This document shows, piece by piece, positions 22,479-39,320 of a DNA stretch of 64,000 bases. Source of the stretch: Escherichia coli (GTDB taxonomy: Bacteria; Pseudomonadota; Gammaproteobacteria; Enterobacterales; Enterobacteriaceae). The translations under genes were made by a program, and so were the position numbers. The stretch lies in NCBI RefSeq assembly GCF_003991155.1, contig NZ_CP031293.1. The stretch is one strand, 5' to 3'. Positions within the stretch are counted from its first letter, which is position 1. Each line of letters begins with the position of its first letter. The notes under the pieces are model-generated. The model had not been told where the DNA came from. It did not search any database and saw only the letters and a list, made by a program, of their open reading frames with translations.

Positions 22479-23018
22479 TCATATTGCCCCCAGCATGGTG
22501 GTGACCATCGCCATCAGTGGACCAGCCAGATCTGGGTCCACACGAAACATCGACACAATACCTTCACTAATTTCCTTCAGTTTCTGGTGGCGTGGTGCGT
22601 TGAGAATGACAGCCTGTTTTGCCTCACTGAGTTCCTTTTCCATTTCAGCCAACCTAGCCATAAAGCTATCCTGCTCAACCAGGTAACCGCGATATTCCAG
22701 CGGTAGTACCGCCAGAATTGCCGGGGTCAGTTCACGCACGTTATTTCGGTATTTTTCAGAATCGAATTTGTTATCGAGGAAGCGGAACAGCTTCTGGCGT
22801 GCACGGCTGACATCATCAGGGAAATCGATGGTGCCGCCGCCCAGCTCCCGATACTCATTCACAATGAGTGCGGCAACAACATCCTGATTATCTGCAGCCG
22901 ACCAGGCGCGAACGGCATCACGGATTTTTTCGTGGCCTGGCGCCTGTTTTGTTTGAGAACGATTTATCACCGCAGTCGGGGTAAATCCGCTAGTCTGTTG
23001 GTATGTAATTGGTTGCAT
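22479..23018 (-). CDS. Protein in the cII position (179 aa; possibly CII/CP76-family regulator)
   Basis: ATG with AAGGA RBS; lies between cro and O; far longer than lambda cII and not matching it; family assignment is from memory only. Confidence 0.4.
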   Translation of the reverse strand: MQPITYQQTSGFTPTAVINRSQTKQAPGHEKIRDAVRAWSAADNQDVVAALIVNEYRELGGGTIDFPDDVSRARQKLFRFLDNKFDSEKYRNNVRELTPAILAVLPLEYRGYLVEQDSFMARLAEMEKELSEAKQAVILNAPRHQKLKEISEGIVSMFRVDPDLAGPLMAMVTTMLGAI

Positions 23019-23099
23019 AATTGATTCCTTTAGTTTGAATTGACTGTTAATCAGTCTGTTAAGTTGATTGCTTATTGTTAAAGAGCGTGAAATGGAAAT

Positions 23100-23330
23100 T
23101 TAAGCTGCGTTCTTTTCGGTGTGTGGAAACAACTTCGGAAGATCCGGGCGAATCTGGTATGCCTTCACAACTCCACCAGTAGCCGTAACAATGCTGCCGA
23201 CATGTTCAGGGGATACCTTTGCTTTGTTGTGAAGCCACTTATAGACGGCCTGCTGTGAAACTTCGCAGGCATCGCCCAGTTTCTTTTGTGAACCAACTAT
23301 ATTGATCGCTGTTTTGATTGCTGGGTTCAT
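23100..23330 (-). CDS. cro: Cro-like HTH repressor
   Basis: 76 aa, HTH-like segment (QKKLGDACEVSQQAVYKWL); divergent from cI across operator region; GGAGG RBS. Confidence 0.7.
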   Translation of the reverse strand: MNPAIKTAINIVGSQKKLGDACEVSQQAVYKWLHNKAKVSPEHVGSIVTATGGVVKAYQIRPDLPKLFPHTEKNAA

Positions 23331-23362: not shown

Positions 23363-23425
23363 AAAACTATGGTTGTTTTTAGTCAACAACCATTTTCGTT
23401 TGATGGAATAAAACCTTGGTTGTAC
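23363..23425. promoter_or_regulatory. oR: oR operator/promoter region (pRM/pR) with three related sites
   Basis: 17-mer AAAACTATGGTTGTTTT (23363-23379), related sites near 23383-23399 and 23409-23425 (AAAACCTTGGTTGTACA); same motif recurs at oL. Confidence 0.6.
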
Positions 23426-23434
23426 ATTTGGTCT

Positions 23435-24124
23435 ATGAAAACAACACTCTCAGAAAGACTTAAAGAAGCCAGATCAGCGCGAGGCCTTACACAAAAGGCA
23501 CTTGGGGATTTGGTTGGGGTTAGCCAGGCTGCTATTCAGAAAATCGAAACAGGGAAAGCTAACCAAACAACTAAAATCGTGGAGATCGCGAACGCTTTGG
23601 GTGTGCGCGCAGAATGGTTATCTTCTGGCATTGGAAATATGTCAGACAGTACAGTGCAACCAATACAATCAACTCTCAGCCATTCCAAATACTTCAAGAT
23701 TGACGTTCTTGATATAGAAGTCAGTGCTGGGCCGGGAGTCATCAACCGTGAGTTTGTAGAAGTTCTACGCTCGGTTGAGTACTCGTTTGACGATGCTCGT
23801 CACATGTTCGATGGTAGGAAAGCGGAAAATATCCGCATCATTAACGTGCGTGGTGACAGCATGTCAGGAACGATCGAACCAGGTGATCTGCTGTTCGTTG
23901 ATATCACTGTTAAATCTTTCGACGGTGATGGTATCTATGCGTTTCTGTACGACGACACAGCCCATGTAAAGCGCCTGCAAATGATGAAGGATAAGCTGCT
24001 GGTCATCTCTGATAACAAAAGCTACTCACCGTGGGACCCGATCGAGAAAGACGAGATGAACCGGGTGTTCATCTTCGGTAAGGTTATTGGGAGCATGCCG
24101 CAGACGTACAGGAAACACGGATAA
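23435..24124 (+). CDS. cI: CI repressor (HTH + LexA-like S24 peptidase domain)
   Basis: Track ORF 23369..24124; likely start MKTTLSERLKEARSARGLTQKALG at 23435 with no SD (leaderless, as for lambda cI from pRM); C-terminal serine-protease-type region (GDSM...K). Confidence 0.88.
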   Translation: MKTTLSERLKEARSARGLTQKALGDLVGVSQAAIQKIETGKANQTTKIVEIANALGVRAEWLSSGIGNMSDSTVQPIQSTLSHSKYFKIDVLDIEVSAGPGVINREFVEVLRSVEYSFDDARHMFDGRKAENIRIINVRGDSMSGTIEPGDLLFVDITVKSFDGDGIYAFLYDDTAHVKRLQMMKDKLLVISDNKSYSPWDPIEKDEMNRVFIFGKVIGSMPQTYRKHG

Positions 24125-24482: not shown

Positions 24483-24923
24483 ATGAAATACGGTTATTAC
24501 GAAGCTCCAAACCTAACTGAAAAGCTTGAACAAGCGGCAAGATCATCATCTTTGCACACCGCAGCATTTTCTCAATCAGCTGGTATGTCTGGCGATAATG
24601 TACCTATGCTACAATCAAGTGGTAGCGGTGGCTCTGGGAGTAATAATGTGCTTGAATCAAAAGTTGCAAAGCTTGAGTCTGATGTGTCCTACATCCGACG
24701 TGACGTTGATGAGCTTAAGACAGATGTCAAATCTATCGACAGAAACATGATCGCTGTTCTGGAGCGACTCGATTCAATAAAAGAGTCACTAGCCAAAAAA
24801 CCATCCATCGATGCTATCGATAAAAAGATTTCAGACGCAAAGCTTGCGGTATTGCTTGGTGTTCCAGCAATCATCGCTGCAGGAACAGGGCTTTATAAGC
24901 TATCAATGTACTTTTTTCTTTAG
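24483..24923 (+). CDS. Hypothetical coiled-coil protein with C-terminal transmembrane anchor (146 aa)
   Basis: Gly/Ser-rich linker, heptad-like region (LESKVAKLESDVSYIRRDVDELKTDVKSIDRNMIAVLERLDSIKESL), hydrophobic C-terminus LAVLLGVPAIIAAGTGLYKLSMYFFL. Confidence 0.55.
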   Translation: MKYGYYEAPNLTEKLEQAARSSSLHTAAFSQSAGMSGDNVPMLQSSGSGGSGSNNVLESKVAKLESDVSYIRRDVDELKTDVKSIDRNMIAVLERLDSIKESLAKKPSIDAIDKKISDAKLAVLLGVPAIIAAGTGLYKLSMYFFL

Positions 24924-25005
24924 TGCTTAAGAAACTGCTCGCCACCTCGCATTAGGCAAAGCGATTTTTCATTCCCTATTACCCTTTCTTAACCAATCAT
25001 CTAAA

Positions 25006-25032
25006 CCCGGCCCCGTGCCGGGTTTTCTTTTG
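25006..25032 (+). terminator. Rho-independent terminator ending the cI-downstream operon
   Basis: Stem CCCGGC (25006-25011) / GCCGGG (25017-25022), then TTTTCTTTTG. Confidence 0.65.
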
Positions 25033-25144
25033 CCCTCCCCTCATCACACACACCGTTAAAAAAACCACCATAACCTCGCTTCAGTTATCGCTATGCGATT
25101 CAAGTCACAAAATAAATCCATCCTAAATACAACCAGTTATATCT

Positions 25145-25197
25145 AAAACAACCAATAAAACAACTTTTGTTGTTGACGATAAAACAACTATAGTTTT
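25145..25197. promoter_or_regulatory. oL: oL operator/promoter region (pL)
   Basis: AAAACAACTATAGTTTT (25181-25197) differs at one position from the reverse complement of the oR 17-mer; related sites at 25145-25161 and 25157-25174; TTGACG -35-like hexamer at 25172-25177. Confidence 0.55.
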
Positions 25198-25395
25198 AAA
25201 TAAGTTCATCGCAACAACACAACGATACGGCAACCACCTGATTCACCGTTGCGATGACCGCTTAGATCCGCAGCTTGAATTTCAGCAGGCTCCGGGGAGT
25301 GCGAGGGGTGAAGCGGACGCGTGAACGTCGGTGTGACCAGCTGAAATCAACTCAACACTTCATACCTCAGTCGCTTCAACGAGGCGGCTTAGTTA

Positions 25396-25685
25396 TGACA
25401 ACCGGCGGCCATCCACCGCCTGAATACGCGCAGAAGTCTCTATATGTTCAGCAGCCCAGCTTACGGGCAGGAGTTTTTATGGTTCATCAACATTACGGTA
25501 CGCAGACCGTTAATCGCGGTGCGGTCATGCCAGGAATGCTGGTCAAACACAAAGATGGTACCTGGACTGCATCGGCTAATTTACGCGGACGGCTTTATCT
25601 GCATCGCGGCGTCGAGCGCACTTATACCCGTGACTTGCTCGTGGAAATTTTTCTCGACGGACGCGGCAACGGCCTGAATCACTAA
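25396..25685 (+). CDS. Hypothetical early-left protein (N/kil/cIII position); function unknown
   Basis: Track ORF 25275..25685 starts at TTG; first ATG with GAGG RBS at 25396 ([20 protein letters not shown]...); no match to recalled lambda N, kil or cIII. Confidence 0.35.
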
Positions 25686-25760
25686 TCCCCTTTCCTGTTT
25701 TCCTAATCAGCCTGGCATTTCGCGGGCGATATTTTCACAGCCATTTTCAGGAGTTCAGCC

Positions 25761-26057
25761 ATGAACGCTTATTACATTCAGGATCGTCTTGAGGCTCAGA
25801 GCTGGGCACGTCACTACCAGCAGATCGCCCGTGAAGAGAAAGAGGCAGAACTGGCAGACGACATGGAAAAAGGCCTGCCCCAGCACCTGTTTGAATCGCT
25901 ATGCATCGATCATTTGCAACGCCACGGGGCCAGCAAAAAAGCCATTACCCGTGCGTTTGATGACGATGTTGAGTTTCAGGAGCGCATGGCAGAACACATC
26001 CGGTACATGGTTGAAACCATTGCTCACCACCAGGTTGATATTGATTCAGAGGTATAA
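25761..26057 (+). CDS. gam: Gam (RecBCD inhibitor), short form
   Basis: 98 aa, matches recalled lambda GamS ([21 protein letters not shown]...). Confidence 0.9.
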
Positions 26058-26062
26058 AACGG

Positions 26063-26848
26063 ATGAGTACAGCACTCGCAACGCTGGCTGGGAAGCTGGC
26101 TGAACGTGTCGGCATGGATTCAGTCGACCCACAGGAACTGATCACCACTCTTCGCCAGACGGCATTTAAAGGTGATGCCAGCGATGCGCAGTTCATCGCA
26201 TTGTTGATCGTCGCCAACCAGTACGGCCTTAATCCGTGGACGAAAGAAATTTACGCCTTCCCTGATAAGCAGAACGGCATCGTTCCGGTGGTGGGCGTTG
26301 ATGGCTGGTCCCGCATCATCAATGAAAACCAGCAGTTTGATGGCATGGACTTTGAGCAGGACAACGAATCCTGTACATGCCGAATTTACCGCAAGGACCG
26401 TAATCATCCGATCTGCGTTACCGAGTGGATGGATGAATGCCGCCGCGAACCATTCAAAACCCGCGAAGGCAGAGAAATCACGGGGCCGTGGCAGTCGCAT
26501 CCCAAACGGATGTTACGGCATAAAGCCATGATTCAGTGTGCCCGTCTGGCCTTCGGATTTGCTGGTATCTATGACAAGGATGAAGCCGAGCGCATTGTCG
26601 AAAATACCGCATACACTGCAGAACATCAGCCGGAACGCGACATCACTCCGGTTAACGATGAAACCATGCAGGAGATTAACACTCTGCTGATCGCCCTGGA
26701 TAAAACATGGGATGACGACTTATTGCCGCTCTGTTCCCAGATATTTCGCCGCGACATTCGCGCATCGTCAGAACTGACACAGGCCGAAGCAGTGAAAGCT
26801 CTTGGATTCCTGAAACAGAAAGCCACTGAGCAGAAGGTGGCAGCATGA
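26063..26848 (+). CDS. bet: Bet (Red-beta single-strand annealing protein)
   Basis: 261 aa, same length and sequence type as lambda Bet. Confidence 0.93.
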
Positions 26849-27525
26849 CACCGGACATTATCCTGCAGCGTACCGGGATCGACGTGAGAGCTGTCGAACA
26901 GGGGGATGATGCATGGCACAAATTACGGCTCGGCGTCATCACCGCTTCAGAAGTTCACAACGTGATAGCAAAGCCCCGCTCAGGAAAGAAGTGGCCTGAC
27001 ATGAAAATGTCCTACTTCCACACCCTGCTGGCTGAGGTTTGCACCGGTGTGGCTCCGGAAGTTAATGCTAAGGCGCTGGCATGGGGAAAACAGTACGAGA
27101 ACGACGCCAGAACTCTGTTTGAATTCACTTCCGGCGTGAATGTTACTGAATCCCCGATCATCTATCGCGACGAAAGTATGCGCACCGCCTGCTCTCCCGA
27201 TGGTTTATGCAGTGACGGCAATGGCCTTGAGCTGAAATGCCCGTTTACCTCCCGGGATTTCATGAAGTTCCGGCTCGGTGGTTTCGAGGCCATAAAATCG
27301 GCTTACATGGCCCAGGTGCAGTACAGCATGTGGGTGACGCGAAAAGATGCCTGGTACTTTTCCAACTATGACCCGCGTATGAAGCGTGAAGGCCTGCATT
27401 ATGTCGTGGTTGAGCGGGATGAAAAGTACATGGCGAGTTTTGACGAGATGGTGCCGGAGTTCATCGAAAAAATGGACGAGGCACTGGCTGAAATTGGTTT
27501 TGTATTTGGGGAGCAATGGCGATGA
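26845..27525 (+). CDS. exo: Exo (lambda exonuclease, Red-alpha)
   Basis: 226 aa, matches recalled lambda Exo ([30 protein letters not shown]...). Confidence 0.93.
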
Positions 27526-27676
27526 CGCATCCTCACGATAATATCCGGGTAGGCGCGATCACTTTCGTCTACTCCATTACAAAGCGAGGCTGGGTATTTC
27601 CCGGCCTTTCTGTTATCAGAAATCCACTGAAAGCACAGCGGCTGGCTGAGGAGATAAATAATAAACGGGGGGCTGT

Positions 27677-28234
27677 ATGACTGATTTCACCGGAAGCAAT
27701 ACTCCTGCCGAACATCGCGACAGCTGGCGCACACCACCAGAGATTTTTGCTGCGCTTAATGCAGAGTTCGTTTTTCAACTTGATGCTGCAGCCAGCGAAA
27801 AAAACCGACTATGTCGGCTTTTTATCTCACAGGAGCAGAACACATTAACCACTTCATGGCCTGAAGCAATGGGATATGCCTCTGGTTATGTCTGGTTGAA
27901 TCCACCATACAGCAATATTTCCCCTTTTGTGAAAAAGGCAGCCACTGAAAACAAATTCAGTAGTGTGGGATGTGTAATGTTATTGCCTGCTGACACATCT
28001 GTCGGATGGTTTCATGAAGCGATACAAACCGCCAGTGAGGTCAGATTCATCACGGCAGGACGACTGGCATTTATTAACCCACTCACCGGGAAACCCGTCA
28101 GTGGAAATAATAAAGGCTCGATGCTCATTATCTGGCACCCATACCCCCGTACACACTGCCACTTTACGACCGTTGATCGTGGAGAGTTGATGGCGTTCGG
28201 CTCAAGGATTCTTGCCCGTCGGGAGGCTGCATGA
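27677..28234 (+). CDS. Phage DNA N6-adenine methyltransferase (Dam-like)
   Basis: 185 aa; NPPY motif (WLNPPYSN) and upstream FQLDAAAS motif; no adjacent restriction endonuclease gene seen. Confidence 0.8.
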   Translation: MTDFTGSNTPAEHRDSWRTPPEIFAALNAEFVFQLDAAASEKNRLCRLFISQEQNTLTTSWPEAMGYASGYVWLNPPYSNISPFVKKAATENKFSSVGCVMLLPADTSVGWFHEAIQTASEVRFITAGRLAFINPLTGKPVSGNNKGSMLIIWHPYPRTHCHFTTVDRGELMAFGSRILARREAA

Positions 28235-28526: not shown

Positions 28527-28624
28527 ACATGAAAAGCAAAATCATCAGGGAGCTACAGGCTCCTTTTTTATTGTTCGCATTCATCCTCAAGCGTATTAAC
28601 CAACAATTCAGGGATTAATGGAAG

Positions 28625-30864: not shown

Positions 30865-31497
30865 ATGAAACCAACGTCGGTGATCATTATGGATACTCAT
30901 CCTATCATCAGAATGTCTATTGAAGTTCTGTTGCAAAAAAACAATGAATTGCAAATTGTCCTGAAAACGGATGATTATCGCATAACCATCGATTATCTCC
31001 GAACCCGTCCTGTTGATTTAATCATTATGGATATAGACTTGCCCGGAACAGACGGTTTTACCTTCCTGAAAAGGATCAAACAAATCCAGAGTACAGTGAA
31101 AGTATTATTTTTATCATCGAAATCAGAATGCTTTTATGCTGGCAGAGCGATACAAGCTGGTGCTAACGGTTTTGTCAGTAAATGCAATGATCAGAATGAT
31201 ATTTTTCATGCCGTTCAGATGATCCTCTCCGGATACACTTTTTTTCCCAGCGAAACGCTCAACTATATAAAAAGCAATAAATGCAGTACGAATAGTTCAA
31301 CGGTCACGGTGCTATCTAATCGTGAAGTAACCATATTACGTTATCTGGTTAGCGGATTATCTAATAAAGAAATTGCCGATAAGTTATTACTTAGCAATAA
31401 AACAGTTAGTGCACATAAATCTAATATTTATGGCAAGCTAGGTTTGCATTCAATTGTAGAGCTTATCGACTACGCCAAATTATATGAATTAATATAA
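30865..31497 (+). CDS. fimZ: Fimbrial response regulator FimZ (LuxR-type)
   Basis: Track ORF 30838..31497; FimZ 210-aa sequence from MKPTSVIIMDTHPIIRMSIEVLL; receiver plus LuxR HTH. Confidence 0.9.
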   Translation: MKPTSVIIMDTHPIIRMSIEVLLQKNNELQIVLKTDDYRITIDYLRTRPVDLIIMDIDLPGTDGFTFLKRIKQIQSTVKVLFLSSKSECFYAGRAIQAGANGFVSKCNDQNDIFHAVQMILSGYTFFPSETLNYIKSNKCSTNSSTVTVLSNREVTILRYLVSGLSNKEIADKLLLSNKTVSAHKSNIYGKLGLHSIVELIDYAKLYELI

Positions 31498-38798: not shown

Positions 38799-39320
38799 AT
38801 GCCAACCGTTATTACGCACGCCGCCGTTCCCCTTTGCATTGCTTTAGGGTTGGGTTCGAAAGTCATCCCTCCGCGCCTGTTATTTGCCGGAATCATCCTG
38901 GCGATGCTGCCCGATGCCGACGTCTTGTCGTTTAAATTTGGCGTTGCTTACGGCAATGTTTTTGGTCATCGCGGGTTTACCCATTCGCTGGTGTTTGCGT
39001 TTGTTGTCCCGCTGTTATGTGCGCTGATTGGACGCCGATGGTTCAGGGCTGGGCTGATTCGCTGCTGGCTGTTTTTAACCGTCTCGTTGCTATCGCACAG
39101 CTTGCTGGATTCGGTAACCACTGGCGGTAAAGGCGTTGGCTGGCTGTGGCCGTGGTCAGATGAACGCTTTTTCGCCCCCTGGCAGGTGATTAAAGTCGCG
39201 CCGTTTGCATTGTCTCGTTACACCACAGCGTACGGGCATCAGGTGATTATTTCTGAATTGATGTGGGTGTGGTTGCCGGGGATGCTACTGATGGGAATGT
39301 TGTGGTGGCGCAGACGATAA
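38799..39320 (+). CDS. ybcI: YbcI inner-membrane protein
   Basis: 173 aa, multiple hydrophobic segments; conserved position. Confidence 0.85.
   Translation: MPTVITHAAVPLCIALGLGSKVIPPRLLFAGIILAMLPDADVLSFKFGVAYGNVFGHRGFTHSLVFAFVVPLLCALIGRRWFRAGLIRCWLFLTVSLLSHSLLDSVTTGGKGVGWLWPWSDERFFAPWQVIKVAPFALSRYTTAYGHQVIISELMWVWLPGMLLMGMLWWRRR

Follow-up and report, generated by a model that had tools for sequence, protein, structure and literature searches.

The window analysed here (64,000 nucleotides of Escherichia coli contig NZ_CP031293.1, assembly GCF_003991155.1) carries an N-less lambda-like prophage of the Perceval/Bievrevirus type, and the interval 25198-25685 is its pL leader, about 270 nt long, followed by a gene that by its sequence matches is a kil of the KilR/phi80 type. 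On balance, the leader appears to be a cis-regulatory device acting on the stability, translation or attenuation of the message for the toxic kil product, not an antiterminator of the N or put type. It comprises a conserved 5' stem (P1), a middle segment confined to this phage family, and a cassette of hairpins with a mini-ORF (25359-25478) that is reused by phi80, HK225 and many other phages and is a candidate new cis-regulatory RNA family. The features are listed in Table 1. Kil proteins and N-less lambdoid phages are already known; the hairpin and mini-ORF cassette is apparently undescribed, the literature search for its sequence (and for phi80 tL1/nutL) having returned nothing relevant and an Rfam scan of positions 24900-25800 (E <= 10) having given chance-level matches only, none of them significant. 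The RefSeq record has no annotation in the leader region.

Table 1. Features of the prophage and of its early-left control region, in window coordinates.
Feature	Position	Strand	Description
Q-like late antiterminator	14678-15085	minus	
Large serine recombinase	18283-19809	minus	moron cargo
QacE/EmrE-like gene	20066-20449	minus	moron cargo
O	21463-22482	minus	
cII-like gene			between O and cro in the listed gene order
cro	23100-23330	minus	
Palindromic operator	23369-23393		
cI	23369-24124		
Two rex-position ORFs, then terminator	25003-25025 (terminator)		
Predicted pL	25173-25201	+	-35 TTGACG 25173-25178, 17-nt spacer, -10 TTAAAT 25196-25201; read from sequence
P1 stem-loop	25206-25257	+	arms 25206-15 and 25248-57; C-rich 32-nt loop; predicted 5' end of pL transcript
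Middle segment	25258-25358	+	101 nt; confined to this phage family
Predicted hairpin in middle segment	25267-25296	+	
G-rich tract in middle segment	25288-25335	+	
TCAAC tandem in middle segment	25347-25356	+	
P4	25360-25398	+	upper stem 25369-77/25381-89; lower stem CAU 25361-63 with AUG 25395-97; covariation
Mini-ORF start MTTGGHPPP	25395-25421	+	nine codons, near-invariant in all cassette types
P5 GC hairpin	25403-25419	+	GGCGG-CCAUCCA-CCGCC
P6 small hairpin	25454-25473	+	GCCC 25454-57 / GGGC 25465-68, then AGGAG 25469-73
kil	25479-25685	+	68-aa conserved core; predicted cell-division inhibitor of KilR/phi80 type
tL3-like hairpin	27586-27608	+	inside orf60a homologue; identical to lambda ~31262-31287
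Second good terminator-like site	28547-28565	+	upstream of DksA-like gene, xis, int

The early-left operon and its promoter

The plus strand of the window corresponds to the leftward direction of lambda, and the early-left order is cI, two rex-position ORFs, terminator, pL, leader, kil, gam, bet, exo, orf60a, methylase, DksA-like gene, xis and int, with kil directly upstream of gam, bet and exo. Positions 25679-27679 are 97.6% identical to lambda 33193-31194, and homology to the lambda kil/gam region is found only in this 3' flank, from 25679. Of 5426 complete E. coli genomes, 2313 (about 43%) contain the leader, mostly at an identity of at least 95%, which makes it one of the commonest prophage control regions of E. 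coli; the genes that follow it are those of a toxic cell-division inhibitor and of Red recombination. Its family members are 95-100% identical to each other, and some have been deposited as whole phage genomes, of which two come from environmental sampling, the host being E. coli.

ACAAC/GTTGT operator-like repeats overlap the predicted pL, and promoter geometry places the predicted transcription start near A25208 of the sequence CAT. Identical geometry and a CATCG start are present in phiEt88 and at the annotated pL of HK639, and the CATCG start recurs at the other loci compared; a promoter consensus scan did not return the predicted pL of the window. The conserved leader is attached to at least three different pL/operator types, with junctions at 25208/9 or 25242. 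Phage phiEt88 combines the same pL/oL type with a canonical putL at the equivalent position, at which the window has other sequence instead.

Two further observations concern the surroundings of the operon. A block of about 85 nt that separates oL from the terminator of the cI operon (25030-25115) is conserved across phages of different immunity, which differ from one another in the operators on one side of this block and in their rex-position genes on its other side. Two cargo genes occupy the nin region of the pR operon, as they do in Perceval and DLP12: one is a QacE/EmrE-like gene for small multidrug resistance, and the other encodes a large serine recombinase.

A predicted kil gene in the N position

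The first ORF of the operon was described in the initial annotation as an unrecognised gene with its ATG at 25396, unlike lambda N, kil and cIII and possibly a divergent N. The ATG lies one base earlier (25395-25397) and opens an ORF of 96 codons (25395-25685) that ends with the stop codon 25683-25685. Its dissimilarity to the three lambda proteins stands, as no Pfam family, Lambda_Kil included, matched the ORF at E <= 1. The gene is nevertheless recognisable: the profile search proposed for the 96-aa protein did find a family, which was that of Kil and not one of N. Residues 20-96 match PHROG 294 (phrog_294, "Kil protein for bacterial septation inhibition") at E = 6.9e-38, and the last 68 residues match NCBIfam NF008465 ("FtsZ inhibitor protein") at E = 5.8e-17 with 61.5 bits against a curated cut-off of 92. 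This 68-aa core is 39% identical to phi80 Kil (BLASTP E = 6e-16) and 76-85% identical to Kil of HK225, SEN34 and Klebsiella phage GZ7, and similar genes occur in Citrobacter, Leclercia, Silvania and Kluyvera. By these matches, the gene in the N position is a kil of the KilR/phi80 type, neither N nor lambda Kil, and the suggestion of a divergent N at this ORF falls away.

All of the Kil homologues start at the equivalent of ATG 25479, in other genera with the sequence MV(H/N)QHYG, and the AGGAG at 25469-73 is the kil Shine-Dalgarno sequence, 5 nt upstream of that codon. RefSeq annotates exactly the 207-nt coding sequence from ATG 25479. Substitutions among relatives number 45 synonymous to 19 non-synonymous in the kil frame, versus 11:51 and 8:50 in the other two frames.

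The position of kil relative to its leader varies elsewhere: Salmonella phage SEN34 (locus L139, 2005-2541) has an HNH endonuclease gene between a conserved pL leader and kil, and in Citrobacter amalonaticus (locus L221) the same leader as in SEN34 directly precedes kil.

A conserved stem at the predicted 5' end of the pL transcript

The perfect 10-bp inverted repeat reported downstream of oL is present as described, TCATCGCAAC (25206-25215) and GTTGCGATGA (25248-25257) being exact reverse complements with 32 nt between them. Such repeats are not rare in the window, where 65 inverted-repeat pairs (10-nt exact seed, at most 60 nt apart) were counted, among them two further perfect 10-bp inverted pairs with gaps of 45-46 nt, of which kind about 3 are expected; for this reason, the P1 repeat needed comparative support. 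Taken alone, the repeat is within chance expectation, and it is the comparative data that lift P1 above chance.

Instead of being absent from related phages, the repeat has invariant arms in 95 unique relatives, with none of 16 arm positions polymorphic as against 10 of 32 loop positions (Fisher's exact p = 0.02). The RNA of positions 25207-25260 has a predicted folding energy of -11.6 kcal/mol (z = -2.76), equalled by 3 of 200 shuffled sequences. In Perceval-type phages, which have another immunity and the junction at 25208/9, pairing at 25207/25208 is retained via G.U wobbles. The O157-type variant has all sequence to the left of 25242 replaced, including the left arm of P1; pairing of the unchanged right arm survives in a single predicted fold, in which its partner is the new 5' end AUUGCA, and this fold (z = -0.36) is no better than shuffled sequence. 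P1 is at best weak in this variant. The kil-first leaders of Leclercia, Silvania, Entomohabitans and Kluyvera each have a different 5' hairpin in the same place. P1 is a conserved stem whose structure is kept while its sequence varies, and of the readings offered for the repeat in the initial annotation that of an RNA stem is the best. Hairpins at the 5' end are known to stabilise E. coli mRNAs, and P1 is probably an mRNA 5' hairpin with a stabiliser role.

The kil-first leaders of Leclercia (locus L222, 1415-1500) and Silvania (locus L223) are short, about 85 nt. In both, a downstream conserved block, GCCUGGCGAC, offers a second partner for the right arm of the 5' hairpin, GUUGUCAGG, and the two resulting folds are mutually exclusive.

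A mobile cassette of hairpins with a mini-ORF

Positions 25355-25425 fold as two hairpins, P4 and P5, at -25.2 kcal/mol (z = -4.2), with none of 200 shuffled sequences folding as well. P4 is predicted to bury both GAGG 25381-84 and AUG 25395. Its upper stem exists in three sequence types among 51 unique variants, with 98.9% canonical pairing and double compensatory changes at six of nine pairs (shifted-partner controls, 34-50% paired), a count in which the gap of one type (type B) was placed by structure, favouring pairing, and in which the arms are self-complementary within each type. The MAFFT alignment was set aside for this count because the type-B gap fell inside the stem, and the structure-placed alignment was used instead. 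P5 is 97% paired and gains little independent support, because it is almost invariant and its rare changes are uncompensated. At the position of P6, other cassette variants have GCGC/GCGC or GCC/GGC, a tentative sign of covariation by sequence.

The same cassette was found in phi80, HK225, an E. coli prophage (locus L239) and about 80 IMG/VR contigs. In those phages it adjoins the T-run of an intrinsic terminator downstream of the N-position gene (annotated as tL1A in phi80), and in the window neither that N-position gene nor its terminator precedes it. The genes behind the cassette vary among relatives and include kil, a membrane ORF and others. The cassette is mobile and is reused before unrelated genes. 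A search of viral contigs for related loci by Kil alignment returned only near-identical loci.

Within the cassette, the nine codons MTTGGHPPP begin a mini-ORF that in relatives has 14-24 codons and mostly ends with EVLY and a stop codon. Its length variants (16, 21, 22 and 24 aa) are in frame, and the other two frames are closed. In the window the mini-ORF continues in frame into kil, which accounts for the 96-aa ORF; this fusion is found in most members of the window family and is broken by indels or frameshift in a minority. Within the family, the 28 codons 25395-25478 show 6 synonymous and 14 non-synonymous substitutions, like the other frames, that is, no coding signal. Translation of the mini-ORF is plausible, and three consecutive prolines are a known ribosome-stalling motif; equally, the mini-ORF may never be translated if, as modelled, P4 sequesters its AUG and GAG(G).

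It is quite improbable that this is an ordinary untranslated region in which the repeat arose by chance and the leader was conserved by travelling with a recently spread kil-gam-bet-exo module. Comparable 10-bp inverted repeats do occur by chance in the window, the near-identity of family members indicates little time for divergence, and the middle segment (see below) is not folded better than shuffled sequence, all as such a region would have it. Against this, P4 has compensatory changes over three stem types, the invariant arms of P1 enclose a variable loop and a 5' hairpin is retained with other sequences in other genera, the cassette recurs before unrelated genes, and the leader is polymorphic at about 10% of sites versus about 26% of kil third codon positions.

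Absence of N, nut and put

The initial annotation suggested that the prophage may do without N, and this is confirmed: N is absent both from its usual position and from the rest of the early-left operon, where no ORF matches N in Pfam and PHROG comparisons, and Perceval, a curated and fully annotated relative, has no N in its whole genome. A known N family preceded by canonical boxA and boxB was likewise not found, the ORF being Kil and the leader being devoid of boxA (no match to GCTCTTTAACA with up to two mismatches in 25200-25480). A single exact copy of GCTCTTTAACA exists in the window, behind cro on the minus strand (23076-23086). No leader segment recurs in the pR operon as a shared boxB would.

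The boxA behind cro is of the rrn type, is located 14 nt after the cro stop codon in the nutR position, and is accompanied by a hairpin at about 23040-23054 (5-bp stem, 5-nt loop). The pair was considered as a nutR site and rejected, as the hairpin stems from a 12-nt duplication that IdasGreatGrand and PhiR26_1 do not have. The entire cro-side spacer that holds this boxA is absent from Perceval-type phages.

The put element is a two-stem RNA of about 70 nt that binds the zinc-binding domain of the RNA polymerase beta-prime subunit and suppresses termination (PMC9378689). Its consensus, GAACGGC...GGUCAGGAUGA...CAAUG, has no sequence match in the leader. A covariance model of five put RNAs (MAFFT/RNAalifold) had poor structure, and hence a sequence profile (nhmmer) was made from the same five (putL and putR of HK022, putL and putR of phiEt88, and putL of HK639); this recovered all seven controls in HK022, HK639 and phiEt88 with E = 1e-14 to 3e-20, and its best match in the window was E = 0.52 at 39183-39205, outside the leader. 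Nor was a second copy of the leader, of the kind that put has, found behind pR, where cro and cII are 81 nt apart in the window and about 24 nt apart in Perceval. The negative Rfam scan says nothing about nut or put because Rfam holds no models of either, a control on the HK022, lambda and phiEt88 loci having given only Lambda_thermo. The check for nut and put elements proposed in the initial annotation hence came out negative in the leader for both the boxA scan and the put profile, and its reading of the inverted repeat as a nut- or put-like element fails on the same grounds together with the lack of a boxB shared with pR. A large group of lambdoid phages evidently operates its early-left operon without N, nut or put; an N-less lambdoid phage was noted previously, and use of put was guessed (PMC12315714).

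Elsewhere, the E. coli ES5 prophage (locus L239) has an RNA resembling the putL of HK639 (1875-2000) followed by a gene (2154-2450) identical to the phi80 'N' gene (WP_000564503.1). The phi80 'N' protein is without an arginine-rich N-terminus, and there is doubt whether it is an N-type antiterminator.

An N-independent cis-acting RNA would still be conceivable if the leader or part of it (P1 with 25258-25358) made RNA polymerase resistant to terminators, as an analogue of HK022 put that replaces N. This is unlikely, even though the phage has no N, family members are deposited as complete phage genomes, the conserved leader begins at +1 like putL, phiEt88 with its similar pL/oL has putL at the equivalent place, and both the hairpin at 27586-27608, which we take to be tL3 from its identity to the lambda hairpin, and the site at 28547-28565 precede xis and int. 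The leader has no sequence similarity to put and no second copy in the pR operon, in which Perceval-type phages have only the narrow gap between cro and cII; its middle segment is not unusually structured; the cassette follows terminators in phages already equipped with N or put; and the short kil-first leaders of other genera lack the middle segment altogether. The one positive argument for needing such an RNA is indirect, namely that transcription of an N-less phage would have to pass the presumed tL3 and the second site to reach xis and int. Both the identity of the lambda hairpin as tL3 and its strength as a terminator are presumed here, the papers that name tL3 giving no coordinates for it.

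The middle segment and its arginine-rich ORF

The middle segment folds no better than shuffled sequence (z = +0.25) and is polymorphic at about 11% of sites, as against about 26% of kil third codon positions. Its TCAAC tandem has a third copy in 3 of 102 relatives. Homology of the middle segment to the SEN34/Citrobacter leader was considered and rejected, as alignment is confined to about 30 nt at the beginning and about 50 nt at the end.

Reading from TTG 25275 gives an ORF for an arginine-rich peptide, RGVKRTRERRCDQLK, which is similar to the RRERRAEKQ motif of lambda N. A 31-aa version of this ORF was called by one annotator, and a 31-aa copy is present in a public protein set. It is nonetheless highly improbable that the peptide is a divergent mini-N acting as an antiterminator: the ORF has a TTG start without a Shine-Dalgarno sequence, is ended by a stop at 25368 in 26 of 102 variants, and has 6 synonymous to 7 non-synonymous substitutions, resembling other frames and giving no coding signal. 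A search of 5.8 billion proteins gave no longer homologue resembling N, and the sole match in PHROGs, Pfam and NCBIfam was to phrog_25330, which at E = 0.09 is not significant. Neither a boxA nor a boxB partner is present. The N protein carries NusA- and polymerase-binding regions, for which this peptide is too short. The possibility that 25242-25358 is a relic of N was also rejected, as its nucleotide sequence resembles no N leader and the arginine-rich ORF has no homologue at the protein level.

A 14/15-nt match, CGCAGCTTGAATTTC, links leader positions 25269-25283 with the 3' end of cro (23109-23095, minus strand) in the same transcriptional orientation. It was taken for a chance match (E = 3.3), being within immunity-specific coding sequence and missing in other immunity types.

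A model for the control of kil

A toxic Kil would be expected to be under tight control; kilR of the Rac prophage is silenced by Rho. From sequence, we infer every functional step of the following model. P1 would shield the pL transcript from 5'-end-dependent decay, and the cassette would act in cis to control the gene that follows it, here the toxic kil. P4 would gate initiation at AUG 25395; a ribosome that does initiate would meet the PPP stall motif within P5 and open that hairpin; and, once stalled, it could alter access to the kil ribosome-binding site, or access of Rho to the leader, which has C-rich, G-poor stretches at 25208-47 and 25328-87.

A broader proposal, more speculative and rather doubtful at present, is that the cassette is a regulatory module found in the early-left operons of lambdoid phages, in which a polyproline leader peptide (MTTGGHPPP), gated by a hairpin, couples the status of the ribosome or EF-P, or access of Rho, to expression of the next gene. 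The N/tL1 checkpoint normally delays expression of kil and the recombination genes. In the N-less family, the cassette together with the 5' hairpin and the family-specific segment might replace that checkpoint.

Comparison with known systems

Rac KilR and phi80 Kil, members of a family of small proteins (about 68-73 aa) that inhibit FtsZ and cell division, are encoded like the Kil described here in the early-left operon just upstream of recombination genes. The present kil differs in being the first gene after pL, in the in-frame upstream fusion of 28 codons carried by most window-family members, and in scoring below the NF008465 cut-off.

Like lambda N/nut, the leader is positioned directly downstream of oL/pL; unlike that system, it has no N protein and no boxA or boxB, and the boxA on the cro side has no conserved hairpin. 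The put RNAs of HK022 share with it the location at or near +1 of the pL transcript of an N-less lambdoid phage and the possession of stem-loops, whereas the leader has no sequence similarity to put and no pR copy, and its promoter-proximal stem is replaced in one sub-family.

The leader of Salmonella mgtCBR contains mgtP, a leader-peptide attenuator with proline codons. In attenuators of this type, hairpins ahead of the controlled gene enclose a short conserved ORF that has a run of prolines, an arrangement that the cassette with its putative mini-ORF would share; the start codon of the mini-ORF, by contrast, is itself buried in a hairpin, and competing terminator and antiterminator folds were not recognised. 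The phi80 annotation places a Rho-dependent terminator, tL1B, immediately behind the cassette, and in the window no terminator was found between the cassette and kil.

The 5' untranslated region of ompA is a 5'-terminal stabiliser hairpin of an E. coli mRNA. P1 resembles stabilisers of this type in having its stem within a few nucleotides of the (here predicted) 5' end and in that its structure, and not its sequence, is conserved.
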